Positions 3,859 to 52,759 of a stretch of DNA of 64,000 nucleotides are shown here, in pieces. How positions within the stretch are numbered: position 1 is the stretch's first letter; every line of letters starts with the position of its first letter. The stretch lies in NCBI GenBank assembly GCA_040222015.1, contig JAVJWO010000028.1, positions 1-64,000 of the forward strand, given 5' to 3'. The translations under genes were made by a program, and so were the position numbers. This DNA comes from Coleofasciculus chthonoplastes F2-STO-03 (lineage in GTDB: Bacteria > Cyanobacteriota > Cyanobacteriia > Cyanobacteriales > Coleofasciculaceae). A model generated the notes under the pieces. The model worked only from the letters and a program-made list of their open reading frames with translations, was not told the DNA's origin and searched no databases.

Positions 3859-4239
3859 GTTATTTGTCATTGGTCATTGGTCATTCGTCTTTCTTTGTCT
3901 GTGGTTGTTTCATTGTGACAGAGTGCGATCGCGTCTGATTCAATGCCTCAAAGATTTGTCTTCTGTAGATATTCCCACAATCACGCTTAACCCTGATGAT
4001 ACCGCCCTGTATCAGGCGTTTATTAAATTCAGTGGGGCGGTTGAAACCGCAACTACACAAACAAAACCCGCCTTCGCGGGTGCCAAAACTCTTCATCTGT
4101 TGTTACATTTGATGAGCTTTTACATAATAAATATGTCAAATAATTAATATTATATTTTGTAGATTTTTGCGGCTTAATATTGCATAATTACTAATCAATA
4201 GTGCTATGGTTGGAGCAAGCAATTTTTGGAGTGTGAGAA

Positions 4240-5184
4240 ATGTCTATAACTATTACAACTCCAACTGAGAGTTCAACGATTCTTAGGGGAGTACCGCTCA
4301 CGTTTAAAGGAAAGGCAGAAAGTGAAATTATCAGAGTAGAACTTTTTGCAGAACAGTATTACCTTGGCGGTGATGACGTTGAGTCAGGGGATTGGGTTCT
4401 AACCTATCCTGGATTTAATAAATCAGGAGTTCGGCGGATCAAAGTCGTAGGACTTGACCACAATGGTAGCCGAATCGCTAGTCGCGAAATCTTGCTTATT
4501 GTGTCCGGTGTTTCTTCTGGCTTTGAACCTGGCATTGATGTTTCTGATTACGATCAATTAGTGAACTGGCATCAAGTTAGAAGTGCAGGTTTCACGTTTG
4601 CTTTTGCCAAAGCAACCGAGGGGAGGACATGGAGAGCTAATACCTTTCCTAGGAATTGGCGGCAGATGCAGGGGGCAGGTGTTATTCGCGGTGCTTATCA
4701 TTTCTTCAGACCTTCTGTAGATCCTCAAGAGCAAGCTCGTAACTTTCTTGACTACGTTGCCAGTGTTGAACCAATTCAACCAGAGGATTTGCCCCCTGCT
4801 CTAGATTTAGAGCATTTTCCGGACTCAGTACGACGCGAATGGGACGCTCTGAGCAAAGCGGAGCGAGTTAAGCGAGTTCGTACATGGATTGAAGTGGTTG
4901 AAAGTGAGATTAAGCGAAAGCCAATTATCTACACCAGTTTTGGTTTTTGGGATGGTTTTATGCCTGGTGTTAAGGACTTCTCTAACTATCCCTTATGGGT
5001 AGCTCACTACACAAATAAACCAAAACCTTTAATTCCAAAAGAGTGGTCAACTTGGGCTTTTTGGCAATACACTGATACTACTGAAGTGCCAGGTATCCCA
5101 ACACCTGACGAAGATGGCAATCGATTCAATGGTTCGCTCAGTGAACTGATATTAGCACTGCTTCCTTCAACGATTATCGCTTAA
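4240..5184 (+). CDS. GH25 muramidase with N-terminal Ig-like domain
   Basis: GIDVS, FAFAKATEG, GAYHFF, LDLE, PIIYTS, LWVAHY, WAFWQYT motifs. Confidence 0.88.
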   Translation: MSITITTPTESSTILRGVPLTFKGKAESEIIRVELFAEQYYLGGDDVESGDWVLTYPGFNKSGVRRIKVVGLDHNGSRIASREILLIVSGVSSGFEPGIDVSDYDQLVNWHQVRSAGFTFAFAKATEGRTWRANTFPRNWRQMQGAGVIRGAYHFFRPSVDPQEQARNFLDYVASVEPIQPEDLPPALDLEHFPDSVRREWDALSKAERVKRVRTWIEVVESEIKRKPIIYTSFGFWDGFMPGVKDFSNYPLWVAHYTNKPKPLIPKEWSTWAFWQYTDTTEVPGIPTPDEDGNRFNGSLSELILALLPSTIIA

Positions 5185-5346
5185 ATCTCTCCCAATACGG
5201 CTCGATTAAGCTTTTTTGGGAACGATGAACTGTGATATTTTCATGGTTTCCTTACTTATCTAATTTTATTGATCGAGCATGGTTGAGATATCTTATGCGT
5301 TGAGCAAAAAACTGATTGTTTAAATTGTCATTGGAGCTTAAAATAA

Positions 5347-7848: not shown

Positions 7849-8589
7849 TTAAAATATTCCCCCAGGAATCCGAGACAGCAGCGAAAAGACGCCGAATCCG
7901 ACTAATAAAGCCCCACTAACGGGTGTAATCCAACTTGACCATTGGCGTACTTCTAATAACTTCTTTATTGAAGCAGTAAATGTACCTGCCACAATTAACG
8001 GGGTAACATAACCTGCCGTATAGGATAATAGCAAAGCCCCACCTAAAACCCAGTCTTGTGTACTTGCCACCCAAGCCAGTAACGTTGCCAAAACGGGTGT
8101 ACTGCAAGGAGAGGCGACTAAACCAAAGGTTAAACCAATCAGATAGGAACGTATCCCCTTGGGCAAATCCGGAGAAATCCACTCCATTCCGCCCAAAGAT
8201 GGTAATTGTAGGGGTAAGGCTTCCAGTAGGTTTAGCCCCATGATGATGGCAATCAGGCTAACAATGATGGGTAATCCGATACCCACTTGCCCATAGACTC
8301 GCCCCACCGATGCGGCTAAAATTCCCAATCCGGCTAGGGTGGTTGCCAATCCCAGGGCAAACCAAGTGGATTGAGTCGCGGCTTGCAGGCGTCCTTTGGC
8401 TTCATAGCCGCCAATGTAGCCAATTGTGATTGGCAGCATGGATAGCATACAAGGAGTGAGGCTCGTCAGCAAGCCCGCTGTAAAGATAATCCCGATGCTT
8501 AATGCACTCAGATGGGTAAGCTGATTGCCAACCAGATTATCGGCAAATTGTTCCAGTTGGTACAGTTGAGTTTGTAAGGTGTCAATCAT
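7849..8589 (-). CDS. ccdA: Cytochrome c biogenesis thiol-disulfide transporter CcdA
   Basis: TSLTPCMLSMLP and ASPCSTPVL motifs, multi-TM, immediately upstream of ccs1. Confidence 0.93.
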   Translation of the reverse strand: MIDTLQTQLYQLEQFADNLVGNQLTHLSALSIGIIFTAGLLTSLTPCMLSMLPITIGYIGGYEAKGRLQAATQSTWFALGLATTLAGLGILAASVGRVYGQVGIGLPIIVSLIAIIMGLNLLEALPLQLPSLGGMEWISPDLPKGIRSYLIGLTFGLVASPCSTPVLATLLAWVASTQDWVLGGALLLSYTAGYVTPLIVAGTFTASIKKLLEVRQWSSWITPVSGALLVGFGVFSLLSRIPGGIF

Positions 8590-8688
8590 GCGCCGAGTAA
8601 TCTACTGAATGCCTGTTCTGTGAAAATTTTAACGTATGGGACTCAAAAAGCCGTCAAAATGTCAGTTCGACTGCGTTCTAGTAAGCCA

Positions 8689-8777
8689 GTAGGGTGTGTT
8701 AACGGAACAAAGTGGAGCGTAACGCACCGATTTTTAAAGGATTGGGGTGCGTTACGCTGTCGCTAACGGCACCCTAC
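8689..8777. repeat. REPIN-like inverted pair of GTAG REPs (GTAGGGTG...TAACGCACC family); single copy at ~9655-9684
   Basis: gtagggtgtgttaac...cgtaacgcacc / ggtgcgttacg...gcaccctac. Confidence 0.75.
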
Positions 8778-8871
8778 TCACTTAACGATGAGTAACGATC
8801 ACAAATTTTTTGGATCGAAGAGGAATAATTTAGGTCTTGCACTCTCTATACTAAACGGTTTAAGACTGAAT

Positions 8872-9513
8872 CTAATCGGATTCGTGGAGAAGTTTCCGAT
8901 AACGCATTTTGAGAATGAGTCCCAGCGTGATTTGTTTCATCACCCAATACAATACTGTCAACACGATAAAAGTGACAAACATGACCAACAAGGGACGTTT
9001 AGCGGTTAAATCGTCAACGACGGTTTGGGCTAAATCCTCAGGTTGTGTAACTAAATCCCAACTATTAAATCGGAGGAATCGTCCTAAATAGATACCAACC
9101 GCGCACAAGGCATGAGTAATGAGTTCAGCCGGAAGCGTAAATTTACCCAGTCCTTGCTTTTGTAAATAGTATCCTAAGTTAATTAACGAGATAATGTAAG
9201 CTTCAAAGCCCAATAAAATAACACTGAGATGTTGCGGAATTAGCACTAACGTAATCACCCAAACGGAATAGTCACGGCGTACCGCATCAATCAGGTGGAT
9301 GATATCCGTCAACAGATAAGGCGCATTGGGTAAGAACGCCATGAAAACAATGAAACCCACCCACCATAAAAGGTTACGAGAGCCAGATGAGCGGCGAAAG
9401 AGCCAAACGCTCAAGGCTAAGGGGATAAAGGCGAGAAATAAGTTCCAAGCCATCCAACCGCTATGGCGATGCCACGCTTTCCAGGCATCCCTTAATAGAA
9501 ATCTGAAAGACAT
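8872..9513 (-). CDS. DUF1361 family membrane protein
   Basis: WNLFLAFIP, FLPNAPYLLTDIIHL, GIYLGRFLRFNSWD. Confidence 0.88.
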   Translation of the reverse strand: MSFRFLLRDAWKAWHRHSGWMAWNLFLAFIPLALSVWLFRRSSGSRNLLWWVGFIVFMAFLPNAPYLLTDIIHLIDAVRRDYSVWVITLVLIPQHLSVILLGFEAYIISLINLGYYLQKQGLGKFTLPAELITHALCAVGIYLGRFLRFNSWDLVTQPEDLAQTVVDDLTAKRPLLVMFVTFIVLTVLYWVMKQITLGLILKMRYRKLLHESD

Positions 9514-10033
9514 GTTTTTACGGGTATAAGTCTGCTAGAGCAATCGGTTATTTACCAGTATAGCTAATGGCTTCAAGACGCCGTGAGCAGTTATTAGTGA
9601 TCCCTTATCAACGAAATCTTGTCAATTTTCAGTAAGCTAAATCGTAGCCAAGTGGTAGGGTGCGTTAGTGAAGCGTAACGCACCACTTCTCAAGGGTTGG
9701 GTAGGTGACGAGAATTTGAGTTTTTGGCGGATGATAGCATTTATGGCGAAGACAGCGCTTACTACAAACGCTTAATTCAGTGACATTTTACTTAACTGTA
9801 TTGTCCAAGAACGACTGGATGTATCTGCCAGGTTTGGTGCGATCGCGCGAGGGGATGAAGGGATCGTGCGTCAAGGCTTTGAGTCGGTTCACTCCCGTTC
9901 CGATTACGATGCGTGGGTATTGAAGAACGAGTGTTAGGGGCGGGTTTAGCCACCATTGTAGGGGCGGGTTTAGCCACTAACTTAACTTGTCACCGATAAC
10001 TGATCAACAAAACCCGCCCTCCTCACCGATAAC

Positions 10034-10195
10034 TTAGCTGAGTTTCAAATAGCTGGCTTCGGCTTCTAGCTGACGAACCAAAGCATCATTGCCATTGGCT
10101 CTAGCGACTTCTATACGATGTTGCAAGTTCTTTTGCAAGCTTTGGCGATGGGTCGCAGCGGCTTCTTTTGCCTGTTTTTGGAGTTTTTTGTTCAT
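10034..10195 (-). CDS. pirA: PirA (Ssr0692)-like small protein, PII-interacting regulator of arginine synthesis, 53 aa
   Basis: Manual translation: MNKKLQKQAKEAAATHRQSLQKNLQHRIEVARANGNDALVRQLEAEASYLKLS*; resembles Ssr0692 as recalled; NtcA box upstream; below the ORF-track size cutoff. Confidence 0.82.
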   Translation of the reverse strand: MNKKLQKQAKEAAATHRQSLQKNLQHRIEVARANGNDALVRQLEAEASYLKLS

Positions 10196-10278
10196 GGTGA
10201 ACATTCCTTTGGTTGTACTTCTGGTATGGACTCTAATTTAAAAATACCACGAATAAAATCAAAAAAGATCACCATTAC

Positions 10279-10292
10279 GTAGTATTTAATAC
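10279..10292. promoter_or_regulatory. NtcA binding site upstream of pirA
   Basis: GTA-GTATTTAA-TAC is a perfect GTA-N8-TAC, ~84 bp upstream of the pirA ATG. Confidence 0.75.
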
Positions 10293-10384
10293 AGAAAATT
10301 GTGAAATGTTGAGGGGGATAACCGCAAACAGAAGGCAGTGGTTCGACAGGCTCACCAACCAGGCAGAAGGTAGGGAGCAAGGTG

Positions 10385-10981
10385 TCAACCTAACCGCTCA
10401 ATTTGGGCAACCCACTTTCCCCACCGTTGGGGGAGTTCATCAAGACAGGCTAACTCAAGCATAAAGCCTCGGTAACGACGGAGTGCGATCGCGTGAGCTT
10501 CGGGATAATCGGCGCAGCAATCAGAAATCACGGTAACCAAGAACCCCAACTGAGAGGCGGAAGCGGCGGTTAACAGAACACAAACCGATGTCACCAATCC
10601 CGCCGTCAGGATGTATTTTTTCCCCCTAGAGCGCAGATAATCCAGCAACGGAGGATGATGGAACCCATCTTGGGTTTGCTTTTCCATAACCATTTCTCCA
10701 GACTGCGCCGCCGCCACACTTAACACCTCGGCTCCCGGCGTTCCCCTGACACAAACCGCACGTCCCCGCAAACGATAGCGCGGTAACCAATCGGAACCAT
10801 CGGGATTAAAAACTTCCCGCAGATGCACCACTTCGAGTCCCTCTTGACGACAGAAGCACAGCAGACGCGCAATATTAGATTGGAATTGTGGAAACGCTTG
10901 CTCGAGTTCCGGATTCCAGAAATCCTGTTGCACATCAATTAACAGTAGGGCAAATTGCTGCCAGTCTCTATGATTCGTCAT
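10385..10981 (-). CDS. Isochorismatase-family cysteine hydrolase
   Basis: ALLLIDVQQDF, EK, GLVTSVCV, VISDCCA. Confidence 0.88.
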   Translation of the reverse strand: MTNHRDWQQFALLLIDVQQDFWNPELEQAFPQFQSNIARLLCFCRQEGLEVVHLREVFNPDGSDWLPRYRLRGRAVCVRGTPGAEVLSVAAAQSGEMVMEKQTQDGFHHPPLLDYLRSRGKKYILTAGLVTSVCVLLTAASASQLGFLVTVISDCCADYPEAHAIALRRYRGFMLELACLDELPQRWGKWVAQIERLG

Positions 10982-23602: not shown

Positions 23603-23827
23603 TCACCAAAGAGAGCTTAAATTCAGGATGAATCCGGGTAAAACATCGTCTCCGGAAAGGGTAGCTGGAGCCTCTAAAATCTCAACAGCTTCCTGAGGAC
23701 GATAAATTTCCACTCGTCTCATTCCTGGCGCAATTAACCAACCCAAACGAGCGCCATTTTTGATATATTCCTTCATTTTATCCTGGGTGTCTTTTAATGT
23801 ATCCGAAGGAGACATAAATTCTACCAT
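23603..23827 (-). pseudogene. Uma2-family endonuclease C-terminal fragment, copy 1
   Basis: VEFMSPSD...KMKEYIKNGARLGWLI...LSGDDVLPGF; N-terminal half absent. Confidence 0.85.
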
Positions 23828-24864
23828 TTACGAATCTTCAACCAATTTTGGTCATGAAGACGTTGCCAAGCTTTGCGAAGATGTTCGGGTTGGAAGCGTT
23901 TGCGCTTCCGTTCACTCCATTGATACACCTGATCAATCATCACATCAACATCCGTAGCGGCTTCAGGATTCTCTTGAGTAACCCAGTGAATTGTCGCTAG
24001 CATTTCTAATCCATAAGGCGTTTCAAACCCTTGAATTAAATTACCCACTCGCTGGAGACAGTCATTCGCCTCCGGGTCTTGTGCTAAAAAAGTATGAGCG
24101 GCTTCTTTCCCCCTAGGCAATACCTGAATTTGAGCATTATTACTGCGATCGCCATAACCCCGAATAAAATGCCCTTCAATCCGTTGCAAAACATGATTCA
24201 GATTATTGGCGTAGGGACCATAGTGATGTTTAACATACCGCAGTTTCAAGGGTTCGCCCGCTACTTGTAAGAAATAGGCAAGTTTCTGGATTTCCAGTTT
24301 CGTGAGTTGATAACCCGGAATACTATAGAGTTCCAGTAAGCGAATAAATAAAGCACGGGCGCGAGTCATTTTAGGTATCGATGTAGCCACTGGCATTGTA
24401 TTGGCTATTGGTGCGCCTTGCGGCTCAAAGATAACCACCTGCACGTCTGGCAATTCAGCTAAGGCTGATTCAATCAGTGGCTTAACATTGTGCCAATCTA
24501 ATCCGCCATTCCCACATCCAAGAGGTGGAATTGCAATAGAATGAATATTTAACCGCTTAATCTCAGCCACTAACGCTTTCAGTCCAGCTTGAATATCCTC
24601 TAGTTTTGATTGTCCTTTCCAATGACGTTTAGTGGGAAAATTAATAATATATCGGGGAAACAATTGATCGGTGGGTACAGTAAACATTCGTCCTGGCTTT
24701 ACTTCCTGGGCATTGCAAGCCTTTTTGTAAGCACGGAAGTTGTCGGGAAATGCTTGTTTAAATTGCAAGGCTATCCCTTTACCCATGACACCGACACAGT
24801 TGACGGTGTTGACGAGGGCTTCCGTGTTCTCTTCGAGTAGGTTGCCTTGCTTAAACTCAATCAC
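23821..24864 (-). CDS. darG: DarG antitoxin (macrodomain DNA ADP-ribosyl glycohydrolase + C-terminal domain)
   Basis: ALVNTVNCVGVMGKGIALQFK, IINFPTKRHW, IPPLGCGNGGL, IQKLAYFLQ, YGPY, GLEMLATIHW. Confidence 0.93.
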   Translation of the reverse strand: MIEFKQGNLLEENTEALVNTVNCVGVMGKGIALQFKQAFPDNFRAYKKACNAQEVKPGRMFTVPTDQLFPRYIINFPTKRHWKGQSKLEDIQAGLKALVAEIKRLNIHSIAIPPLGCGNGGLDWHNVKPLIESALAELPDVQVVIFEPQGAPIANTMPVATSIPKMTRARALFIRLLELYSIPGYQLTKLEIQKLAYFLQVAGEPLKLRYVKHHYGPYANNLNHVLQRIEGHFIRGYGDRSNNAQIQVLPRGKEAAHTFLAQDPEANDCLQRVGNLIQGFETPYGLEMLATIHWVTQENPEAATDVDVMIDQVYQWSERKRKRFQPEHLRKAWQRLHDQNWLKIRKW

Positions 24865-24911
24865 ATTTCTAAATTGATGACTTGAATCTGAGTTGTACTA
24901 TTATTTTAACG

Positions 24912-25571
24912 TTAATAGTACCAATCACGGTAAACATTAACGGGAGGCTGAGGGTTAAACTTTTGTAATCGTTTCCGTACCTGTACTTGGATTGTAAAAT
25001 CGAACACGCCAATCTCTTCAATGAGCCTCCACGGACAAAATTGAGGTACCAAAAACTCAGCTTGTCGTCTGCGCTTTCTATCTCCATCGTCTGGCGTATC
25101 TGCCCAGTAGTTCTCTTTCATAATCTGCCAATCGATCCGATTTAAATAAGCCAGATCATCATAAAAGTCTGAGTACGCCATAATCCCATGACCATCGGTA
25201 AAGACAAACCCTGGTATGTTTGTCGAGATCGCCTCGACAGAGGAAACCAAATAAAGGACGCTACGTTGTCCTTGAGTATAACCGGGTACATTCCCTCTGT
25301 GAATCGTGTAGAGCATCGGGGAACGGGGGGCAAAGTAAAATGGCACATAATCATGTAATACGCCACCAGCGCCACAGGGAACCGTAGTAGTGGCGCGGCG
25401 ATCTTGGATAGTTTGATAAGCAATATTAATGTAATTGATGTTATCTTGGCGCAGCCGATTATAAGCGCATAATCTAGCCCGTTCCAATATAGACGTTAAA
25501 TTTTTGATGTCGGTAATATGATAAATAGGGATTGGCACTGGTGTTTTTAAGTCGAGTTTACGTCTACTCAA
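24912..25571 (-). CDS. darT: DarT toxin (DUF4433 ssDNA ADP-ribosyltransferase)
   Basis: IYHITDIKNL, LHDYVPFYFAPRSPMLY, FTDGH, RRRQAEFLV with catalytic Glu; upstream of darG. Confidence 0.93.
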   Translation of the reverse strand: MSRRKLDLKTPVPIPIYHITDIKNLTSILERARLCAYNRLRQDNINYINIAYQTIQDRRATTTVPCGAGGVLHDYVPFYFAPRSPMLYTIHRGNVPGYTQGQRSVLYLVSSVEAISTNIPGFVFTDGHGIMAYSDFYDDLAYLNRIDWQIMKENYWADTPDDGDRKRRRQAEFLVPQFCPWRLIEEIGVFDFTIQVQVRKRLQKFNPQPPVNVYRDWYY

Positions 25572-33574: not shown

Positions 33575-33744
33575 GGTGGGTTACGGCGGATAGTTCATTT
33601 ATAGCAACCGCCATAGCGGTTAGGACACATCATTTATGTAGAGACGTTGCATGCAACGTCTCTACAATGGTGCCGAACGTCCTAATCGATGTGTCTACTG
33701 CTATAACGGCTACGTACCATCATTTAGTTCCCGCCTAACCCACC
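33575..33744. mobile_element. Nested REPIN > TATAGCA-ended MITE (33600-33705) > 28-bp palindromic REP (33638-33665)
   Basis: ggtgggttacggcgg...ccgcctaacccacc arms; tatagca...tgctata; gtagagacgttgcatgcaacgtctctac (identical copies at 49537 and 58072). Confidence 0.7.
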
Positions 33745-33961
33745 CGACAAAGACTGGTAATTCCATCAAATTAATTGGCTTGGTGTAAGATAACCATTTT
33801 CACGTTTAGCCATCTCCCCTCGGTGCGTTTGCAGTCAAAGCATCCGGTTCGCGATCGCTTTCGCTGGGAACTGTATAGGAGAACCTATTGTGCTTTCCGA
33901 TATCATGGTATCCCTAACCCCCAGCATTTACCCCCAGGTAATCCTACCCAACACCACTCCC

Positions 33962-36457
33962 ATGGCTAGTGAACCCCTCGACTACTCCTTTCTCTTACTC
34001 ACCCATCTAGTCTGTGCCGATCGCCAAATTCATCGGGAAGAGTCGAAACTCTTGCATGAATTGGCAGATCAAACTCAGGTGGGACAACAGACTATCCAAG
34101 AAATGGAGAAAATTCTCGCCCAAGAGAAAACCATCCTCCCTGTCGAGAACATCGCCCAGCAAATCCCCCCCGAACAGCAACAGGAAGCGATGCAGCAACT
34201 CCTGGCGCTGGCTTATGTAGATGGACTCTTTTCCCCCTTAGAACGGCAAATGATCGCACAGGTGGCACAGATTTGGCACTGGGATGCGACAGAGGTGGAA
34301 CAGATGGTGACTCAAGCCCAAACCCTGCAAGCCAACCGGAAAAAAGATAGGGATTCTCACACCGAGAAACTCTCACTCAGCGCGATTTTACTCATGGGTG
34401 CAGAGTCTATCTTATCCCGAACTTTAATCGCTAAACTTGCCACCTTCGCCCCCGAAACTCTGGGACGCCGCATTGTTCAATTGCAACGGCAAATCCTTTT
34501 AGCCGGACCCGACTACGAAGAAGCGGTACAACAAAATAGCATTATCGCCAGGGAAGATTATCGCTTCACTGAAACCGCACTCACGGATACTGAGTCCACG
34601 TTAATCGGCTTAAATCAAACCCTAAAACTCACCCTAGAAAACCTCCAGAAAACCATTCATCAGCAGCCGACGAACCCAACCACGCAAGAACTGATCAATC
34701 AATTCAACCAAACCCAACAAACCCTAGCCGCCGAAATTGGAGAAGAACTGGACATTGTACGTGAATCCCTCTGGGCAAAACAACGCGCCTTACACCATTT
34801 TAGTCTGGCGGTTATGGGAAAAACCAAAGTCGGCAAAAGTACCCTCCATGCAATTATTATTGGTGAAGGCTGGGAAGCGATTGGTAGTGGGGGACAACGC
34901 ACGACTCGCTTTAATCGAGTGTATGATTGGAAAAATATTCGCATTATCGATACCCCCGGAATTGGCGCACCAGGGGGGAAAACGGAAGAGGAAATTCTCG
35001 AAAGTGTGATTGAAGAATCCGATCTCATTTGTTATATCGTCACCAATGACAGCATCCAAGAAACCGAGTTTCAATTCTTGCAGCAGTTAAAAGCCAAGGC
35101 AAAACCCTTAATTATTCTGCTCAACCTGAAATATAATCTGCGTGATCCGCGTCGCTTAGACTATTTCTTAAAAAATCCCGATAAACTCTTTACCCTAGAA
35201 GGAAGTAGTGGGATTGGCGGACATATCGATCGCATCCGTCGTTATGCCCAAAACCATTATGCCAACGACTATTTTGATATTATTCCCGTCATGCTGCTGG
35301 CGGCGCAAATGGCAAGCGAACCAGAACACCAACCTAATCAGGATAAACTACTCAAAGCCAGTCGCATTCAGGACTTTTTAGACTCCATCCGCGAATCCCT
35401 AGTTAAGCATGGCGCGATTCGGCGATCGCAAACGCTTCTGGGTTCGACTGTGGGTACGGTTGAACGCCCCTACCACTGGATGAGTCAGAAACGTCAAAGC
35501 TATCAACAATTGAGTGCTACTCTCACCCGTCAACGGGAAACCTTGCAGGCGCAAATCAAAACGGCGGGTAAGGATCATCTGGAATTCCTCCAGTATCAAA
35601 TTGGCAGCATTTTTCAAGATATTTTCAATAGTTTACCGGATTTTGCTGAATCCAATTGGAACTTCAGTCAGGAAAGCTTAAGACAAAATTGGGACTATAA
35701 ACTGCAAGCGCTGCAAATTGATGATCGCCTGCAATATGCCTATCAAACGACGGTGCAAAACTTCAATCGTGATGTAGAAATTGCTTTATCTGAACTGGGA
35801 ACCGATTTACAATTAATGGCTCATAGTGGTGGGCATGATTTCCAATTTTTTCCGAATCCTGCTGATCTGTACAGTGATAATGCCGCACAAATTGGCGGGA
35901 TTTTCTTGAGACTCTCCCAAACCCCGGTGACTCATTTTAGTCCCCCGGTGAACAAAACGGTGATGATGGGAGCAGTTGTGCTGAATAGCATTTTAGGTAT
36001 TTTTACAACCCGCGAACAAAAACGCAATTTTGCCGTTCAACGGTTGTCTAAGTTATTAGCCCCTCAAATCAGAGCCAGTCAGCGCCAAATTGAGGAACAA
36101 GTAGCTAATAATTTCCGCGAGTATTATCGCCATGCAGCGGGGAGCATTATGCGGTATATCGAGGGGCTGATTCAAGAGTTTGAGCTAATTTCTCAGCAGT
36201 TTAATCAGCCGCAGCAACAACTCAACCAGACGATTAATTTGCTTAATCGGGCGTATAGCAAGCGGATTGTTGATTGGTGTCAAAGCCACTATGAACCCTT
36301 AACTGAAGCCGGAATTAATAAAACAGTTACCCAAGTGAAACGGGAGTTTGGTAAACAGATTGATATTCAAACTAAATTTCAAGTCCGATATCATCTAGAC
36401 AGCCAGGAAATTAATCGAATTTTGCAAGAAGATGTGTTGATGCATCGGCTTCAGTAG
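33962..36457 (+). CDS. TerB-like domain fused to dynamin-like/MMR_HSR1 GTPase and helical stalk (ORF extends upstream to 33890)
   Basis: TerB motifs LVCADRQIHREE and LAYVDGLFSPLER; G1 GKTKVGKST, G2 RTT, G3 DTPG, G4-like NLK; long coiled coil. Confidence 0.8.
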   Translation: MASEPLDYSFLLLTHLVCADRQIHREESKLLHELADQTQVGQQTIQEMEKILAQEKTILPVENIAQQIPPEQQQEAMQQLLALAYVDGLFSPLERQMIAQVAQIWHWDATEVEQMVTQAQTLQANRKKDRDSHTEKLSLSAILLMGAESILSRTLIAKLATFAPETLGRRIVQLQRQILLAGPDYEEAVQQNSIIAREDYRFTETALTDTESTLIGLNQTLKLTLENLQKTIHQQPTNPTTQELINQFNQTQQTLAAEIGEELDIVRESLWAKQRALHHFSLAVMGKTKVGKSTLHAIIIGEGWEAIGSGGQRTTRFNRVYDWKNIRIIDTPGIGAPGGKTEEEILESVIEESDLICYIVTNDSIQETEFQFLQQLKAKAKPLIILLNLKYNLRDPRRLDYFLKNPDKLFTLEGSSGIGGHIDRIRRYAQNHYANDYFDIIPVMLLAAQMASEPEHQPNQDKLLKASRIQDFLDSIRESLVKHGAIRRSQTLLGSTVGTVERPYHWMSQKRQSYQQLSATLTRQRETLQAQIKTAGKDHLEFLQYQIGSIFQDIFNSLPDFAESNWNFSQESLRQNWDYKLQALQIDDRLQYAYQTTVQNFNRDVEIALSELGTDLQLMAHSGGHDFQFFPNPADLYSDNAAQIGGIFLRLSQTPVTHFSPPVNKTVMMGAVVLNSILGIFTTREQKRNFAVQRLSKLLAPQIRASQRQIEEQVANNFREYYRHAAGSIMRYIEGLIQEFELISQQFNQPQQQLNQTINLLNRAYSKRIVDWCQSHYEPLTEAGINKTVTQVKREFGKQIDIQTKFQVRYHLDSQEINRILQEDVLMHRLQ

Positions 36458-36653
36458 ATCAGGGAGCAATGTAGAGACGTAGCATGCTACGTCTGGGAGC
36501 AGGGGAAGCCATGTTCCAAGACGAGCCATGGAGCGTCTGTGTGTAGGGGCGGGTTTAGGGACTAATATTGATTGTTATCCCTAGCTTGGCTGCAAAACCC
36601 GCCCCAACCAAATGACATAAGACATAAGACATAAGACATAAGACGAATGACAA

Positions 36654-38327
36654 ATGACAAATCAATTTAAATCAGCGGTTGTCGCATCTAAGTTAACGAC
36701 AGCTTGTATGAAATTTGACAAATACCTGGTGAAAATAAATCGAACGCCTCTAACTAAAATTCGTCAAAAACTACGCCAGGAACTTAATACCTATCGCCAT
36801 CAGGGAATGCTGAGTGTTGTCGTAGTTGGACAATATGGGGCGGGAAAATCTACCCTGATTTCGGCGTTGACAGGGCGACGAGATATTGCTATTCATTCCG
36901 ATATTACAACGGATCAGATCAGCCGTTATAATTGGCAGGGAATTGAGGTCATTGATACACCTGGACTGTTTACAGAACGGCAGGATCATGATCAAATAAC
37001 CTATAGCGCGATCGCGAAAGCGGATTTGGTGATTTTCTGTCTCACCTCGATGCTGTTTGACGCGATAACGGTGGAAAATTTTAAGCAGTTAGCCTACCAT
37101 CAGGGCTATCGCTGGAAAATGATGCTGGTGATTAATAAAATGTCCGAGGAAGCGGGTGAGGATAGTGAAAAAATGGTGAACTACCGCCGCAGTTTAGCTG
37201 AAGCTTTACATCCCTATAATCTGGATGAATTTCCGATCTGTTTTATCGATGCCAAAGACTACTGTGAAGGAATCGATTCTGGGGATAAATTTCTCAGAGA
37301 CGTGAGTCGTTTTTCCACATTCATTCAGACATTGGATACCTGGGTCGAACAGCGAGGGTATTTGACTCGCTTTGATACCCCGATTCGCATCGCTTTAAGC
37401 TGTGTAGATGACGCGCAATTTGATATCAGTCGTACCACTCCCCAAGACTCCGTATTCTTAGAACTACTCACCCGCCTAACTCGTAGTCTACACCAAGAAC
37501 GCGATCGCCTGCGGACTAAAATTCAGGGGATAATTCTGCACCTATCTGCTGCGATTACTAAAGAAGGCGATACCCTGCAAGTAGCCTTGGGTAGTCAACT
37601 GAACTTTGAACAATTGACTCAGCGGACTGAACTAAATATCCAAAACCATTATGAACAAGCCTGCGAAAAAATAACCAATACTCTAAACCAGGCGATGATA
37701 TCCCTACACCAAACTATCGTAACACTACTAAAAGGAACTCTGGTGCAACTATTACTGGAATCGTGGGAACAGGCTAAACAGGATAATCACAATTCAGGCA
37801 ATTCTAAAAAGGCACAACGCATCCATCGTCAATTGTATTGGCTGAAAACCTTTAGGGATACCGTTGAGGCAATGTCAGAAAACTATCCCCAAAATTTAGC
37901 TGAGTTTCAAGTTAAACCTTGGCAGTCGGTAGAAGCGATGACTCCAATTATCCATATTTCCCACTTCTTAAGTTCGGCAACGATCATTTTCTCAGAGAAA
38001 CCTGAACCGGATACTGGGGAATTCCCAGCGGATAGAGAAAAGCAAATGAACGATATTATCCGTTATATTACCAGTCAATTTCAGGCAATTGCTAAACATC
38101 TAGAGAATCAAATTAATGCTCAACTCTGGACTGTAGAACAACAAACCTATCGAAAACTTGAGCAACAGATTAGTGTCAGACGTCAGCAGGAACTAGACGC
38201 GATCGCGGGTTCTAATAAAGACGTAAAACAATTAGCTGAAATTCGTCGTGACTTTGAGCGAATTTTGCAGTATATTAGCAAGGCGACAGTCAAGTCCTCG
38301 GCTTTCCCAGGAACGGGTGACGGCTGA
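36654..38327 (+). CDS. Dynamin-like GTPase, LeoA-like
   Basis: G1 GQYGAGKST, ITTD, G3 DTPG, G4 INKM, helical C-terminus; size and tandem position like LeoA. Confidence 0.72.
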   Translation: MTNQFKSAVVASKLTTACMKFDKYLVKINRTPLTKIRQKLRQELNTYRHQGMLSVVVVGQYGAGKSTLISALTGRRDIAIHSDITTDQISRYNWQGIEVIDTPGLFTERQDHDQITYSAIAKADLVIFCLTSMLFDAITVENFKQLAYHQGYRWKMMLVINKMSEEAGEDSEKMVNYRRSLAEALHPYNLDEFPICFIDAKDYCEGIDSGDKFLRDVSRFSTFIQTLDTWVEQRGYLTRFDTPIRIALSCVDDAQFDISRTTPQDSVFLELLTRLTRSLHQERDRLRTKIQGIILHLSAAITKEGDTLQVALGSQLNFEQLTQRTELNIQNHYEQACEKITNTLNQAMISLHQTIVTLLKGTLVQLLLESWEQAKQDNHNSGNSKKAQRIHRQLYWLKTFRDTVEAMSENYPQNLAEFQVKPWQSVEAMTPIIHISHFLSSATIIFSEKPEPDTGEFPADREKQMNDIIRYITSQFQAIAKHLENQINAQLWTVEQQTYRKLEQQISVRRQQELDAIAGSNKDVKQLAEIRRDFERILQYISKATVKSSAFPGTGDG

Positions 38328-38527
38328 TAGGTGTAACGTTGAATTAATTTTTATACAATAATTTACCTCATTTTTACGTAGATAAATTGGGGCAATTATC
38401 GCGGTTGGTTGTAGGGGCGAGTCGCTGCTCATCGTAGGCGGTGTTAGAATTAACCTGTCTCGACTCGCCCTTGTCTAAATGTAGGCGGTTAAGTTTAATT
38501 TTGTCGGATTAGTTCTGAATTGCTACT

Positions 38528-39136
38528 ATGGCATACAGCGATTTTTCATTGAATCAGGTAAAAAAGGTCTTTGGACTAACAGAACAAACTGTTCAGCTTT
38601 TCAGTAATGTTGCTACCTTAGAACCAAGTAACTGGCTACAGGAAACCCTTAGCTATAGCCTTAAGTTAGCCCTGGCTTCGTCCAGTGAAAAAGCAAGATC
38701 AGAATTTATTATTGCCCCAATTTTAATTGAGCTAGAGCGACGAAATCCGAATAAACTATCTATCTATTCTGGCGAAAATCTCGATGTAGACGAGGAGCAG
38801 GGGTTGAAAGGAGAATGTGATTTTATCTTGGCTAAAAGTCCAATTTCTTTGACCATGCAGGCTCCGATTATTTCTTTGGTAGAAGCGAAGAAAAGCGATA
38901 TCAAAGGGGGTTTAGGTCAGTGCATTGCTCAAATGTTGGGAGCGCAACGCTTTAACGAGCTAGAAGATAACTCAATTTCTGGGATTTACGGCTGTGTGAC
39001 CACGGGAGAAGACTGGCAATTTTTGAAGTTAAAGAACAATTGTATTTTTATGGATAACCAGCGATATTACATCAATGAACTGGAAAAACTGCTTGGCATT
39101 TTCCAATTTATTGTGGATAGTTACGAAACATCTTGA
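38528..39136 (+). CDS. Cyanobacterial PD-(D/E)XK-like (HsdR N-terminal-like) protein
   Basis: SEKARSEFII, ECDFIL...VEAKK, QCIAQM, YGCVTTGEDWQF. Confidence 0.65.
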   Translation: MAYSDFSLNQVKKVFGLTEQTVQLFSNVATLEPSNWLQETLSYSLKLALASSSEKARSEFIIAPILIELERRNPNKLSIYSGENLDVDEEQGLKGECDFILAKSPISLTMQAPIISLVEAKKSDIKGGLGQCIAQMLGAQRFNELEDNSISGIYGCVTTGEDWQFLKLKNNCIFMDNQRYYINELEKLLGIFQFIVDSYETS

Positions 39137-39419
39137 CAACCGTAGGGGCGGGTTTAGGGAATCAATTTAGCTAGTCAGAACTAACTGAATAACGAAACCC
39201 GCCCTGCCTCACCAATAATACCAAATAATACCCAATCCGCGTTTATAACCCGCTTTTGCCACGGCGATTAAAGCGGAATGTGGGTTACCACAGAATAAAC
39301 GGTTTTGACCTTTATGCTCACAAAAGCGAGATTGCTGACCGATTTGTCAGGCAACATCCGGTGATAAATGTTAATGTCGCATGGTTGATATGTAAAAATG
39401 TCATTTGTGTGCGGATTAT

Positions 39420-43500: not shown

Positions 43501-44177
43501 TTGCGCTTGTAGTTGCGCTTGTAGTTGCGCTGTCTTCGCCATTAAAAGTATAGCGTTGACCACAAACCCTTAATTCACTCAATCCCTATTACTCTTGTAG
43601 ATTGACTTGAACGAAAAAGATGATTAAATTTTTGAGGAAATTATTGAATTCTCTGTGTCAATCTGTGTCTCTCACTATTCAGGCTTCTGTCTGCATCATC
43701 CCTTCTGTGTCATCTGTGTTTTTGTCAATACTCAGTCATAATTTTTATCTAAAGTTAAAAAAAATACATGCATCCAACGAGACATGGGGGGTGAGGCGAA
43801 AACTATGAATTATACAAAGTTTTACGAATATTCAAGGGATTTAGCTGTGTCAAAATTAATTTTGCCCACAAAAAACCCACCATAGATAGTATACATGAAA
43901 ACCGCACAAGCCTCTCACAATCGCTGTAACCCCTGAAACTTCGTAGCGTTTTCCCAAAAAGAGGTAAAAAACGAGCAATTATGACGTTTTGTTGAGACGA
44001 GACTCTGATTGAAAAAAATAAACCGTTCTGGGGGAAAGAATAGTTTAACTTATTAGAAGTTGACAAATTGAGGTGGAACGATATTGAGTCAAGGGGAAGG
44101 AAATGTCAGTAGCGAAGGAGAAAGAAATAGCCAAGTGGTATCTAGTGAATAGTGGGTATCAAAAGAAGGCAAGAGCA

Positions 44178-44669
44178 ATGGTTAGTCGATACAGTATCGT
44201 TCAATACGTTCCCAATCCGATTGCTGATGAGCGGATCAATATTGGTGTGCTTGCCTTTGATGATGATCGGGTGCGTGTTCGGTTTTTAAGCCATTGGGAA
44301 CGGGTAAAACGCTTTGGAATGGAAGATATTCATTTCCTCAAAGATTTCGCTAGTCGCATGGAGGATGCGGCTGCTGATGGATTATTGTTTCCGGGGGATT
44401 CGCCGAATGAGACTCCCAAGCAGGAACGTTTAATCAGAGTCGCTCAGAATTGGTTTAATAGCATTCAGTTGACTGAACCGCGTGGTTCTCTAGACGATGT
44501 AGACAGCCTTTTAGCTGATATTGCTGATACCTGTTTACTTGAGCCACCGGAGAAGCCAAAGCCGCGCGATCGCGCTTTTGCTGTTCAAATGACTAGGAGG
44601 AAAATTAGAAATATTCTTGGAGATCGAGCAAAAGATCTAGTAAAAAAAAATATTCAAGGATCACCTTAA
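44178..44669 (+). pseudogene. DUF3037-domain protein, apparently C-terminally truncated (ORF extends upstream to 44103)
   Basis: SRYSIVQYVPNPIADERINIGVL and NSIQLTEPRG motifs; stops shortly after an A9 run. Confidence 0.65.
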
Positions 44670-45036: not shown

Positions 45037-48000
45037 ATGACGGATAGAGCAGAATTACTCGATATTATTGATAAGGCAGCCCGTGAAGGAGTAACAAGGC
45101 TGGATTTGTCGGGTAAAGGTATTACAGAGATACCGGACTGTATCGGTCAATTAACTAAGCTTCAAAAGCTGGATTTAGGGGAAAATCAAATAACAGAGAT
45201 ACCGGACTGTATCGGTCAATTAACTAACCTTCAACAGCTAATTTTAGGGGAAAATCAAATAACAGAGATACCGGACTGTATCGGTCAATTAACTAACCTT
45301 CAAGAGCTGAATTTAAGGGAAAATCAAATAACAGAGATACCGGACTGTATCGGTCAATTAACTAACCTTCAAGAGCTAATTTTAGGGAAAAATCAAATAA
45401 CAGAGATACCGGACTGTATCGGTCAATTAACTAACCTTCAAGAGCTAATTTTAGGGGAAAATATAATAGCAGAGATACCGGAATATATTGGTCAATTAAC
45501 TAACCTTCAAGAGCTGAATTTAAGGGAAAATCAAATAACAGAGATACCGGACTGTATCGGTCAATTAACTAACCTTCAAGAGCTAATTTTAGGGGAAAAT
45601 CAAATAACAGAGATACCGGAATGTATCGGTCAATTAACTAACCTTCAACAGCTGAGTTTTGGAAAAAATCAAATAACAGAGATACCGGAATGTATCGGTC
45701 AATTAACTAACCTTCAATGGCTGATTCTTGGAAAAAATCAAATAACAGAGATACCGGAATGTATCGGTCAATTAACTAACCTTGACTTACTGAATTTAGC
45801 GAATAACAAAATAACAGACATACCGGAATGCATCGCTCAATTAACTAATCTTCAAAAGCTGGATTTAGACAATAATCCTCTTACCCCTATTCTAAAAAGT
45901 GCCTATCAAAGCGGACTAGACGAACTCAAAGCCTATTTAAGAAGTATACAAGAACCCGACCAACGCGAAGAATTTTACGAAGCAAAATTAGTCTTAGTTG
46001 GTGAAGGGGGAGTAGGCAAAACAACCCTGCTTAAAGCACTAACGGGTAAAGACCCTCAAACCAATGAACCCACCACTCATGGAGTTGATATTGCCATTCA
46101 AGCGCTCCATCTACCCCATCCCCAAAAAGAAAACGTTGAAATTAAACTGAATTCCTGGGACTTTGGCGGTCAGGAAGTCTATCGCGTCACTCATCAATTT
46201 TTCTTCAGTAAACGTTCCGTCTACTTACTCGTTTGGGAACCACGCCGAGGTGTGCAGCAATGCCAAGTAGAAGACTGGCTAAAATTGCTACAGATGCGAG
46301 TTGGCGATGAAGCGCGTGTAATTATCGTTTCGACCTATTGCCAATCCGGTCAACATATTGCACGCATCGATAAACCTGTCCTAAAACGTGATTTTGGTGA
46401 CATGATTGTTGGCTTTCATGAGGTGGATAGTTTAGTCGATGACCCCGCTACTGGGGAAAAAGTGGGTATTGCACAACTCAAACAAATCATTGCTGAAACC
46501 GCTCAATCGTTTGACCAAATGGGAGTGGTGCTAAATACAGCATGGCGAGAGTCACGGGATGAACTCTTGGCAATCGATAAACCTCGGATTTCTTACACAA
46601 AATTTACCACAGTTTGCTCGGCTCATGGTCTAAATGATATTGCCACAAAAACCCTGGCTGACCTAATGCATGATTTAGGGTATATCGTTTACTACAGTGA
46701 GGATGAACGGTTGCAGGATGATGTGGTATTACAGCCAGAATGGTTAACTAAAGCCATTGGTTTTGTTCTAGAAGACCGCACCACTCAAAACATGGATGGT
46801 ATCTTATCGGATAATCGCTTACTAGAGGTATGGTGGAACCATCCAGCCGATGGGAAAACTCGCTACCCGTCAGAGTTGTATCCCTTCTTCCTGCGACTGA
46901 TGGAAAAATACGATGTCTCCTACCGTTTGGAAGATGGAACCGCCAGTTTAGTCGCGCAACACGTACCCCAAATTCGTCCCAATCTCCCCTGGCTACCGGA
47001 GGAAGAACCCGCGAACAATCGGCGTCGCATTGCTACCGTTTGTGTGATGGAAGAATCGCCACCGGGACTAATTCCCTGGATGATTGTTCGCACCCATGAC
47101 TATATCTATCAGCGCCATGAACCAGATGGGAAAACCCATCGATTACACTGGCAAAAGGGGATGTTCCTGCGGAATAAAACCCATGGTGAGGCGATGCTGG
47201 AATTGCGAGACAGAGAACTTCATCTGTATACTGAGGCGGTGTGGCCCGAATACTTTACCAATATCCTTCAGCAAACCCTACAAAAGCTGATTTCTGACAC
47301 TTGGCCCGGATTAGCCGGACGGTATTATTTTGCCGTTCCTTGTCCCACCAAAAACCAAGGAAAAGCCTGTATGGGACGATTTGAAATTGGTGCATTACGC
47401 CAGTTTCTGGAGGAAGGGGATACTCACTATCCCTGTCAGTTTTGTCGCACCCGCCACAAAATAGTTGATTTACTCTTCGGTTTAGAAGAGGAAGACACCA
47501 GAGAACAATTAAGTCGCATTGAAGTTAAAGTTGAGCGCGGCTTTACTGAAATCCAGCAGAATCTCCAGGAATTTGAAAGCCGCATCGCCAACTATGTGAT
47601 GGGGATTATGCAAGCCGTCGCCAGCGAATCCAAACGGGGACCGCGACTATTCACCCTGGAACCGAGGGAGGGAAACTGGCGACGGTTGACGAGTAAAAAG
47701 TATCGGCTACATTTATGGTGTGAGGAACCGAGTTGTCAGCATCCTGTCCATGATATCGATAAAGGCGTTTATGAGTTTAAAGCGTCTCGTGAGTGGGTGG
47801 AAAAAGTTGCTCCCTACGCTAATTTGATTGCGGGGGTGTTGAAAACCTTAACCCCAATTACTGCACCCGCCGCGAATATGTTTTTTGGCGAAGAGTTTAT
47901 GAAAGTCAGTAATCTTCAATCTCAATTGGAGATAATGAAGGAGTTAACCAATACGATTCTCAGCGATAACAAACTCCTGATGGATGGAACCGCCGGGATG

Positions 48001-48183
48001 CGCGATGGCTTAGTCAGTCAAGCGGAACGTTCGGGAATTTTGGCGTTACATTCTTTCTTAGATGAGGAAGACTCCCATCATGAAAGATTGGGACTTAAGC
48101 GACTGCCCACCTATACCGGGGACTATCTTTGGTTATGTGAAAAACACTATCAGAATCGTCAGTCGAAAATGCCGCAGTTCTAG
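45037..48183 (+). CDS. Roco protein: LRR-Roc GTPase-COR with Cys-rich/coiled-coil C-terminal region
   Basis: ~12 LRRs of 23 aa; GEGGVGKTT, TTHG, WDFGGQEVY, THQFF; COR motifs LMHDLG, PEWLTKAI, HWQKG. Confidence 0.92.
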   Translation: MTDRAELLDIIDKAAREGVTRLDLSGKGITEIPDCIGQLTKLQKLDLGENQITEIPDCIGQLTNLQQLILGENQITEIPDCIGQLTNLQELNLRENQITEIPDCIGQLTNLQELILGKNQITEIPDCIGQLTNLQELILGENIIAEIPEYIGQLTNLQELNLRENQITEIPDCIGQLTNLQELILGENQITEIPECIGQLTNLQQLSFGKNQITEIPECIGQLTNLQWLILGKNQITEIPECIGQLTNLDLLNLANNKITDIPECIAQLTNLQKLDLDNNPLTPILKSAYQSGLDELKAYLRSIQEPDQREEFYEAKLVLVGEGGVGKTTLLKALTGKDPQTNEPTTHGVDIAIQALHLPHPQKENVEIKLNSWDFGGQEVYRVTHQFFFSKRSVYLLVWEPRRGVQQCQVEDWLKLLQMRVGDEARVIIVSTYCQSGQHIARIDKPVLKRDFGDMIVGFHEVDSLVDDPATGEKVGIAQLKQIIAETAQSFDQMGVVLNTAWRESRDELLAIDKPRISYTKFTTVCSAHGLNDIATKTLADLMHDLGYIVYYSEDERLQDDVVLQPEWLTKAIGFVLEDRTTQNMDGILSDNRLLEVWWNHPADGKTRYPSELYPFFLRLMEKYDVSYRLEDGTASLVAQHVPQIRPNLPWLPEEEPANNRRRIATVCVMEESPPGLIPWMIVRTHDYIYQRHEPDGKTHRLHWQKGMFLRNKTHGEAMLELRDRELHLYTEAVWPEYFTNILQQTLQKLISDTWPGLAGRYYFAVPCPTKNQGKACMGRFEIGALRQFLEEGDTHYPCQFCRTRHKIVDLLFGLEEEDTREQLSRIEVKVERGFTEIQQNLQEFESRIANYVMGIMQAVASESKRGPRLFTLEPREGNWRRLTSKKYRLHLWCEEPSCQHPVHDIDKGVYEFKASREWVEKVAPYANLIAGVLKTLTPITAPAANMFFGEEFMKVSNLQSQLEIMKELTNTILSDNKLLMDGTAGMRDGLVSQAERSGILALHSFLDEEDSHHERLGLKRLPTYTGDYLWLCEKHYQNRQSKMPQF
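45121..45870 (+). repeat. 69-bp near-identical coding tandem repeats (LRR units)
   Basis: Recurring acagagataccgga[c/a]tgtatcggtcaattaactaacctt. Confidence 0.95.
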
Positions 48184-52216: not shown

Positions 52217-52759
52217 ATGCAATATCGACGAGCGAAAACACCAGGAGCAACGTATTTTTTTACAGTGGTGACGTATCAGCGACAGACAATCTTTGACGAT
52301 GGGGAGATGGTGGAGTTGTTGCGGCAATGTTTTCGGGTGGTGAAGCAAAGGCATCCGTTTGTGATTGAGGCAATGGTAGTGCTGCGCGAGCATTTGCATT
52401 GCATTTGGACATTGCCAGATAATGATGCAAATTTTTCGATGCGATGGCGGTTGATTAAGACTGAATTTAGTCGTCGTTGTCGGGATAGTTACAAACGGCC
52501 ACAGGAGGCTTCACGGGTGAGGAAGGGAGAACAACCAGTTTGGCAACGGCGGTTTTGGGAACATCAAATTCGGGATGAGCGGGACTTTCAACACCATGTA
52601 GATTACATACATTTCAACCCGGTACATCATGGATTAGTGACAGCACCGAAGGATTGGGACTATTCCAGTTTTCACCGTTATGTGCGGGATGGGTGTTATC
52701 CGATAGATTGGGGTGCAGATGGCGATATTAAATTGCCTCCCAATGTTGGCAGCGAATAA
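52217..52759 (+). mobile_element. REP-associated tyrosine transposase (RAYT, Y1 HUH)
   Basis: YFFTVVT, EHLHCIW (HUH), WQRRFWEHQIRD, YIHFNPV, WDYSS; flanked by REPINs. Confidence 0.92.

Follow-up and report, generated by a model that had tools for sequence, protein, structure and literature searches.

A TerB-fused Eleos pair of dynamin-like GTPases with eroded paddles in Coleofasciculus chthonoplastes F2-STO-03

Eleos, the name defined for the gene pair LeoBC and LeoA (10.1101/2022.12.12.520048), is the closest described counterpart of the locus presented here, a pair of dynamin-like GTPase genes with an N-terminal TerB domain at positions 33962 to 39136 of a 64,000-nucleotide stretch of DNA from Coleofasciculus chthonoplastes F2-STO-03 (this whole stretch is referred to below as the window). 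According to the cited reports, an Eleos pair from Bacillus vietnamensis tested by Millman et al. in 2022 protected only against the jumbo phages AR9 and PBS1 and required both P-loops, its colocalization with defense genes was put at 60%, the way in which it detects or blocks jumbo phages was called unknown, and its likeness to animal Mx proteins was called speculative (10.1101/2022.05.11.491447). LeoA of enterotoxigenic Escherichia coli (ETEC) has a glycine-rich paddle, bound neither lipid nor nucleotide when studied alone, and has been linked to vesicle secretion (PMC4159319). Among other bacterial dynamin-like proteins (DLPs), DLP1 and DLP2 of Campylobacter are inactive apart and are activated by assembly (PMC6104087), and DynA is an example of a DLP that repairs membranes (PMC5827413). 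In jumbo-phage infection, the Dionysus system abolishes the early vesicle, for which it requires its TerB gene (10.1101/2025.09.30.679545); a switch of TerB between the cytoplasm and the membrane has been proposed.

Profile and fold comparisons identify the two large genes of the locus as an Eleos system (LeoBC plus LeoA) with an N-terminal TerB domain. The LeoBC gene (33962 to 36457, + strand) encodes 831 amino acids from an ATG, within an open frame that begins with a GTG at 33890, and is followed after ∼200 bp by the gene for LeoA, the second Eleos subunit and likewise a dynamin-like GTPase (36654 to 38327, + strand, 557 amino acids). A gene of the PD-(D/E)XK family (38528 to 39136, + strand, 202 amino acids) starts 200 bp downstream in the same orientation, and we judge it to be a neighbor outside the system; the layout reported in the preliminary description, two co-oriented large GTPases and then a nuclease-fold gene, is accordingly what we find. 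LeoBC matches the PADLOC LeoBC model PDLC03841 (residues 215 to 822, profile positions 19 to 592 of 601, E 3.7e-94) and LeoA the PADLOC LeoA model PDLC03839 (residues 3 to 543, positions 6 to 556 of 559, E 1.5e-95), with scores within the range of Bacillus-type members (341 to 371 bits versus 315). Pfam profiles were matched as well, TerB (PF05099) and MMR_HSR1 (residues 282 to 388) in the first protein and MMR_HSR1 and Dynamin_N in the second.

The GTPase domain of LeoBC (34790 to 35404, + strand) carries G1 (GKTKVGKS, residues 286 to 293), G3 (DTPG, residues 330 to 333), and a G4-like N388-x-K390, and LeoA carries G1 (GQYGAGKS) and G3 (DTPG); both G1 and G3 are invariant in both subunits across 94 LeoBC and 82 LeoA homologs. 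The "NLK" form of G4 had been flagged as atypical and is indeed present, but it is the norm for the family, with N388 in 94 and K390 in 85 of the 94 aligned homologs, and we rejected it as a sign of decay. AlphaFold models of LeoBC and LeoA (mean predicted local distance difference test [pLDDT] scores of 75 and 72, respectively) both have the G domain, neck, and trunk predicted for a bacterial DLP. The best Foldseek matches of the LeoBC model were BDLP, IniA, LeoA, and mitofusin, that of the LeoA model was ETEC LeoA (4aur, E 4.7e-9), and the models also matched the Campylobacter DLP pair structures; structural alignment to Fzo1 gave a Z score of 16.4 and a root mean square deviation of 4.2 over 309 residues, and whole-chain TM-scores were low (0.18 to 0.29), as expected of hinged proteins. 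At 64.7 bits, LeoA falls under the cutoff of 325 for NCBIfam NF041922 (LeoA/HP0731) and so outside that subfamily in the strict sense; it has a conserved F5/A8 motif at its N terminus and no match to the Pfam DLP_helical profile carried by most of its relatives. Sequence searches of the PDB returned generic GTPases only, with nothing matched by the TerB part, and a search of the ESM Atlas with the whole of LeoBC matched TerB-GTPase clusters in which Cyanobacteriota was the commonest phylum.

The TerB domain (33995 to 34303, + strand, residues 12 to 114) matches PF05099 above its gathering cutoff (E 1.8e-8, 35.1 bits versus 24.4), and the putative metal-binding acidic residues D20, E27, D87, and E94 of its two acidic motifs are kept in 83, 82, 89, and 90 of 95 diverse homologs. 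The closest relatives of the pair are Coleofasciculus proteins and contigs (89 to 97% identity), in line with a mat-forming filamentous host from this genus. The best 120 of 1167 matches are all full-length relatives, the organism-named ones being cyanobacterial, and at E 1e-30 matches occur in 23 of 301 genomes of the phylum, 74 of 401 of the order, and 19 of 52 of the family, tallies that count distant forms too and, for the family, take in the unpublished and otherwise unused genome G305. Among long representatives at 50% identity, a cyanobacterial TerB profile matched 97 of 117, and a broader profile, built partly from proteins matched by the first, matched 112 of 125. LeoA directly follows LeoBC in 49 of 50 cyanobacterial TerB-LeoBC loci, which were picked on LeoBC alone and of which the 50th runs off its contig, and in all 56 metagenomic loci with room for it (75 of 80 loci were analyzed, 73 with a complete LeoBC). 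The TerB fusion defines a widespread subtype of Eleos and is not unique to Coleofasciculus chthonoplastes F2-STO-03. The preliminary description, which had anticipated an Eleos-like dynamin pair with an added TerB, went too far in proposing a candidate undescribed system, as both proteins are full members of the PADLOC Eleos models and the fusion is common.

The N-terminal slot of LeoBC varies in content. In place of TerB it can hold TPR repeats (L043), a second GTPase (L045), unassigned domains (L050 and L087 to L089), or nothing (L086 and L090 to L092). LeoA still adjoins the forms with TPR repeats, an extra GTPase, or an empty N terminus, and TerB is thus dispensable for pairing. Single-chain head-to-tail fusions with LeoBC first are found at L035 (7458 to 11705, − strand), L042 (8060 to 12256), and L043 (7520 to 12655), and genome G074 encodes two such fusions, one with TerB and the other with TPR repeats at its N terminus. 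One TerB-type pair is plasmid borne, in Pseudanabaena, with a Tn3 transposase, a methyltransferase, and a helicase as neighbors. A search of 50,697 phage records and two scans of viral contigs gave no match. Separately, we note a TerB-LeoBC with an extra C-terminal YbjN domain (L082, 2171 to 5068, − strand), the same type of TerB fused to GUN4 (L093, 1330 to 4026, − strand) or standing alone (L094, 8450 to 8839, − strand), and two broken copies, one with an internal duplication across the LeoBC-LeoA junction (L047 in G101, 4083 to 5213, − strand) and one with a split LeoBC (L040 in G170, 8208 to 10616).

The putative membrane paddles had been described as only weakly hydrophobic, and we find this to be both correct and specific to a lineage: the paddles of both subunits are eroded in a Coleofasciculaceae clade that remains under purifying selection. 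The LeoBC tip (35834 to 36010, + strand, residues 625 to 683) has a maximum Kyte-Doolittle hydropathy (over 19 residues) of 1.51 and 4 Gly, versus medians of 2.2 and 7 in 94 homologs, and its model falls below a pLDDT of 50 at residues 648 to 681. The LeoA tip (37851 to 38051, + strand, residues 400 to 466) is ∼30 residues shorter than usual and almost free of Gly (67 amino acids and 1 Gly, versus medians of 98 and 13 in 82 homologs). Both tips are eroded in 12 of 56 complete pairs, those of the window, seven congeners, and L057 to L060. Peak hydropathy of the worn LeoBC tips is 1.26 to 1.56, with 1 to 4 Gly, versus 1.76 to 2.71 and 5 to 12 Gly in the other 32 TerB pairs; the worn LeoA tips span 59 to 78 amino acids with 0 to 7 Gly, versus a typical 95 to 100 with 9 to 15. 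Short LeoA tips are also present in L038, L041, and L042, but these retain a Gly-rich hydrophobic helix. In trees inferred without the tips, the twelve worn pairs are monophyletic (Shimodaira-Hasegawa-like approximate likelihood ratio test 100 in a quick IQ-TREE run, FastTree support 0.999), requiring one change, and the worn state, common to five genera, therefore records a single erosion event rather than a repeated correlation. Ratios of nonsynonymous to synonymous substitution rates (dN/dS) among seven Coleofasciculus copies are 0.153 for LeoBC and 0.202 for LeoA (0.17 and 0.25 for the respective tips and 0.066 for the LeoBC GTPase domain), versus 0.066 for mutS and 0.084 for cobA. With both paddles worn, we predict only weak direct insertion into the bilayer, and TerB or a protein target would then have to provide the targeting.

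LeoBC ends in a small alpha/beta domain (36281 to 36454, + strand, residues 774 to 831) with H-E-E-H-E order in the model. Compared by hhalign with Bacillus-type LeoBC tails, this 58-residue tail aligns weakly, and only to their first KH domain (probability 37%, P 3.6e-4, versus P 0.49 and 0.55 for reversed controls); it is likely what remains of a first NusA-like KH domain, with no GxxG loop. The direct hhalign comparison with NusA, for which the NusA side comprised 26 sequences, was not significant (P 0.19), the GxxG nucleic acid-binding loop was looked for in the tail and is absent, and a search of the ESM Atlas with the tail gave no usable match. Bacillus-type LeoBC proteins, such as those at L056 (7758 to 9926) and L055 (8001 to 10097) and P0241 to P0360, end in a NusA-like tandem KH1-KH2 (hhalign probability 99.5%), with a GxxG loop in 37 of 56 tails, and this tandem is a candidate RNA sensor for Eleos. 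A second KH domain is found in 52 of 108 proteins recovered by a Bacillus-type query, none of which has TerB; across 233 proteins the two never co-occur and the two sets are separated by one long branch, a separation that is partly built in by drawing the sets with two different queries. The Eleos pair itself is already known and covered by the PADLOC models; new here are the worn-paddle clade under purifying selection and the observation that KH-tailed Bacillus-type LeoBC was never seen with TerB. We found no description of the TerB-LeoBC fusion, of KH domains in LeoBC, or of paddle loss in the accessible literature, a scope that leaves subscription papers, notably the 2012 work of Anantharaman et al. 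on Ter systems, and bioRxiv supplements, including Table S5 of Millman et al., as places where the fusion or TerB-fused cyanobacterial members may be mentioned.

We hypothesize, with slightly better than even confidence, that the TerB-capped Eleos pair forms a GTP-driven hetero-oligomer that TerB would direct to the membrane compartments of large phages. The hypothesis draws on other systems, in that Eleos stops jumbo phages, DLP pairs activate on assembly, and Dionysus needs TerB. LeoBC and LeoA would activate each other on assembly, as do Campylobacter DLP1 and DLP2, and TerB, in keeping with the sensor or adaptor role proposed for it earlier, may occupy an exchangeable N-terminal slot as a module that surveys membranes under the control of a ligand or a metal. 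Its target would be membrane altered by phage, most probably an early compartment or vesicle of a large phage, which the activated oligomer could remodel or cage through GTP hydrolysis, and a separate toxin would not be needed.

Several points weigh against such a role. No phenotype for any TerB-type pair was found in the accessible literature, ETEC LeoA alone is inert toward lipid and nucleotide and is tied to vesicle secretion (PMC4159319), and the eroded paddles weaken membrane-remodeling models for the Coleofasciculaceae lineage. Within the genus the pair is fixed at a site flanked by mutS and cobA, which is unusual for defense genes: 9 of 9 Coleofasciculus genomes carry it, with frames open in all (one cut by a contig end), and the six congeneric loci listed have mutS upstream in five cases and cobA downstream in four. 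Defense genes are not enriched around the cyanobacterial copies, in contrast to the 60% colocalization reported for Eleos, and PADLOC matches (1e-8) were obtained for 14 of 148 neighbors of 28 cyanobacterial loci (a set that excludes 16 neighbors of three loci), no more than for the other window genes (3 of 39, two of these being a DarT-DarG pair). Most of the 14 encode multicopy nucleases, a kinase, or an ABC ATPase, and only about three loci look defense-like. Descent appears mostly vertical, with 18 family changes on the tree (minimum 15) versus a mean of 28.4 when shuffled (38 thinned rows, 200 shuffles, lowest shuffled value 25). In favor of a defense role, as is the surrounding of the Pseudanabaena plasmid pair, 19 of 99 neighbors at distant TerB-type loci match PADLOC and a WYL regulator stands at most three genes away in 9 of 18 nonredundant loci, figures that stand without a genome-background control. 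Non-cyanobacterial TerB-type loci are thus often found beside WYL regulators and cyanobacterial ones amid housekeeping genes.

The main rival, less probable than defense, is that in filamentous cyanobacteria the pair is derived from Eleos and domesticated, with a resident role in membrane maintenance or in ion, metal, or osmotic stress, TerB reading metal or ion status and anti-phage activity no longer its main function. Its presence in all nine genomes, its recurrent position between mutS and cobA, its mostly vertical descent, a neighborhood without defense enrichment, and membrane repair by DLPs such as DynA (PMC5827413) all agree with this. Against it, outside the genus the pair is patchy (matches, counting distant forms, in 19 of 52 genomes of the family and 74 of 401 of the order), copies are broken in several genomes (L040 and L047), dN/dS of 0.15 to 0.20 exceeds that of mutS and cobA two- to threefold, and the eroded paddles speak against bilayer repair in the Coleofasciculaceae lineage.

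TerB might instead be a structural assembly domain that captures the N terminus of LeoA without any sensing, as does the 119-residue N-terminal domain of Campylobacter DLP1, which it resembles in position and size (PMC6104087). The conserved F5/A8 motif of LeoA would suit such a contact. We consider this distinctly unlikely, given that LeoA is kept in pairs without TerB (L086, L090 to L092, L055, and L056), that natural fusions link LeoA to the C terminus of LeoBC and not to its N terminus, and that the acidic TerB residues are conserved across the 95 diverse homologs.

The PD-(D/E)XK gene had been put forward as a component, and a three-gene system in which this nuclease is an effector triggered by the GTPase pair is very improbable. 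The protein matches PADLOC PD_DExK (E 1.7e-51; no Pfam match at E 0.1). Its co-orientation 200 bp downstream favors a link, as does a close copy (90 to 95% identity) behind the pair in L095 and L002, but those are two of only seven congeners with room, the other five and 43 other TerB-LeoBC loci having none there. The genome holds 34 matches to the family, 27 of them at E<1e-20; close copies lie 8 kb from the pair in G315, on another contig in G320, and as a second copy in G316, three congeners have only short matches to the gene, and none of the 99 neighbors of distant TerB-type loci matched PD_DExK. A distant family member upstream of the pair in L059 is expected for so common a family, and the gene has a GC content of 0.39 (genome, 0.454). 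We rejected it as a third component on its multicopy nature and unconserved position, and it is likely an unrelated multicopy passenger. A NAD-kinase-like gene follows LeoA in several congeners (L001, 4413 to 5225; L002, 12275 to 13087; L003, 12289 to 13101). L004, L005, and L007 have it broken or in part, and the window lacks it, the nuclease gene having its slot there.

That the system is a decaying relic, as loss of the paddles in both subunits and the absence from LeoA of the DLP_helical match present in most relatives might suggest, is scarcely credible beside frames open in all nine Coleofasciculus genomes (a contig end truncates one), dN/dS of 0.153 and 0.202 (tips, 0.17 and 0.25), and an eroded state common to five genera.

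Some distant loci do have a possible additional partner. A family of unannotated helical proteins ending in a hydrophobic stretch is encoded in 15 of 75 distant loci (L125, 7388 to 7999; L129, 5140 to 5895; L136, 7147 to 8004; and 12 more), and in each of the nine inspected its gene immediately precedes LeoBC; it is possibly a membrane-anchored third component there, and no match to it was found in the cyanobacterial set. These loci are labeled Bacteroidota-like from one Atlas row and from the neighbor families DUF4421, DUF6140, WG repeat, MobC_2, and DUF3945, presumably typical of Bacteroidota.

A broader proposal, speculative and rather improbable as a whole, would recognize at least two deep Eleos subtypes by sensing module, NusA-like tandem KH (RNA binding) and TerB (membrane or ion surveillance), with the Coleofasciculaceae pair as a nearly paddle-less, Mx-like soluble dynamin aimed by TerB at jumbo-phage compartments. 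If so, worn and intact orthologs would be a natural experiment on the need of Eleos for membrane insertion. The family would also join two independent anti-jumbo-phage themes, TerB in Dionysus and dynamins in Eleos, in one protein. Natural variants separate the questions, as pairs occur with and without TerB, with and without the KH tandem, with intact or worn paddles, and as separate or fused chains. If the pair is domesticated, a defense system would have turned resident in mat-building cyanobacteria.

HIP1 sites, read earlier as a sign of long residence, are present (4 in 5.2 kb, or 0.77 per kb; none in the nuclease gene) but match the genome-wide average (0.78 per kb), and we rejected them as a special signal; their density is compatible with long residence, for which presence in 9 of 9 Coleofasciculus genomes is the better evidence. 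Promoter and terminator scans at the locus gave chance-level results. About one-fifth of the sequence words are present in eight metatranscriptome runs, and on related-strain contigs in four runs the pair, mutS, cobA, and intergenic repeats are covered alike; given this equal coverage of genes and intergenic repeats, DNA carryover is possible and we draw no conclusion on expression. Short palindromic repeats resembling repetitive extragenic palindromes flank each gene of the locus (33636 to 33661, 36469 to 36494, 36543 to 36561, and 39142 to 39160), with one copy of an identical 19-mer before LeoA and another after the nuclease gene. Elsewhere in the window are the DarT-DarG toxin-antitoxin anti-phage pair ∼8 kb upstream (23821 to 25571, − strand; PADLOC E 3e-73 and 2e-141), a Roco protein (LRR-Roc-COR, 1048 amino acids; 45037 to 48183, + strand), an IS200-like transposase remnant (52217 to 52759), and a DUF3037 gene (44103 to 44669, + strand). 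DUF3037 genes are usually partnered with a HipA-like kinase, and no open reading frame of at least 80 amino acids for such a kinase lies just upstream of this one.

Set beside the described systems, the locus recalls, by description, the "HSR1" clade of cyanobacterial DLPs of Jilly et al. 2018, in which a DLP stands beside an HSR1-type GTPase gene (PMC5827413), and differs from it in its TerB, a domain mentioned 0 times in the accessible text of that article. Like Campylobacter DLP1/DLP2 (PDB 5owv/5oxf), it pairs two different DLPs, the first of which has an additional domain at its N terminus, and the fusions L035, L042, and L043 have the head-to-tail arrangement of Bacillus subtilis DynA; unlike in these, the extra domain is TerB and dispensable for pairing, and neither is matched at the sequence level in the PDB. 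Dionysus, Bunzi, and Shango share TerB in a defense setting, and Dionysus, like Eleos, acts on jumbo phages, but no dynamin-like GTPase is described for them in the accessible parts of the sources and the Dionysus effector is pore forming. ETEC LeoABC (PDB 4aur) has the same gene order and provides the top fold match for LeoA, whereas its first gene is split, and the window LeoA lies below the NF041922 cutoff and has largely lost the glycine-rich paddle. Eleos, compared here without the tested B. vietnamensis sequence, differs from the window pair in the N-terminal TerB, the lack of a second KH domain, the housekeeping context, and the eroded paddles of the latter, and resembles it in the consecutive order of LeoBC and LeoA, near full-length PADLOC matches, intact P-loops in both subunits, and the naming of Cyanobacteria among its hosts.

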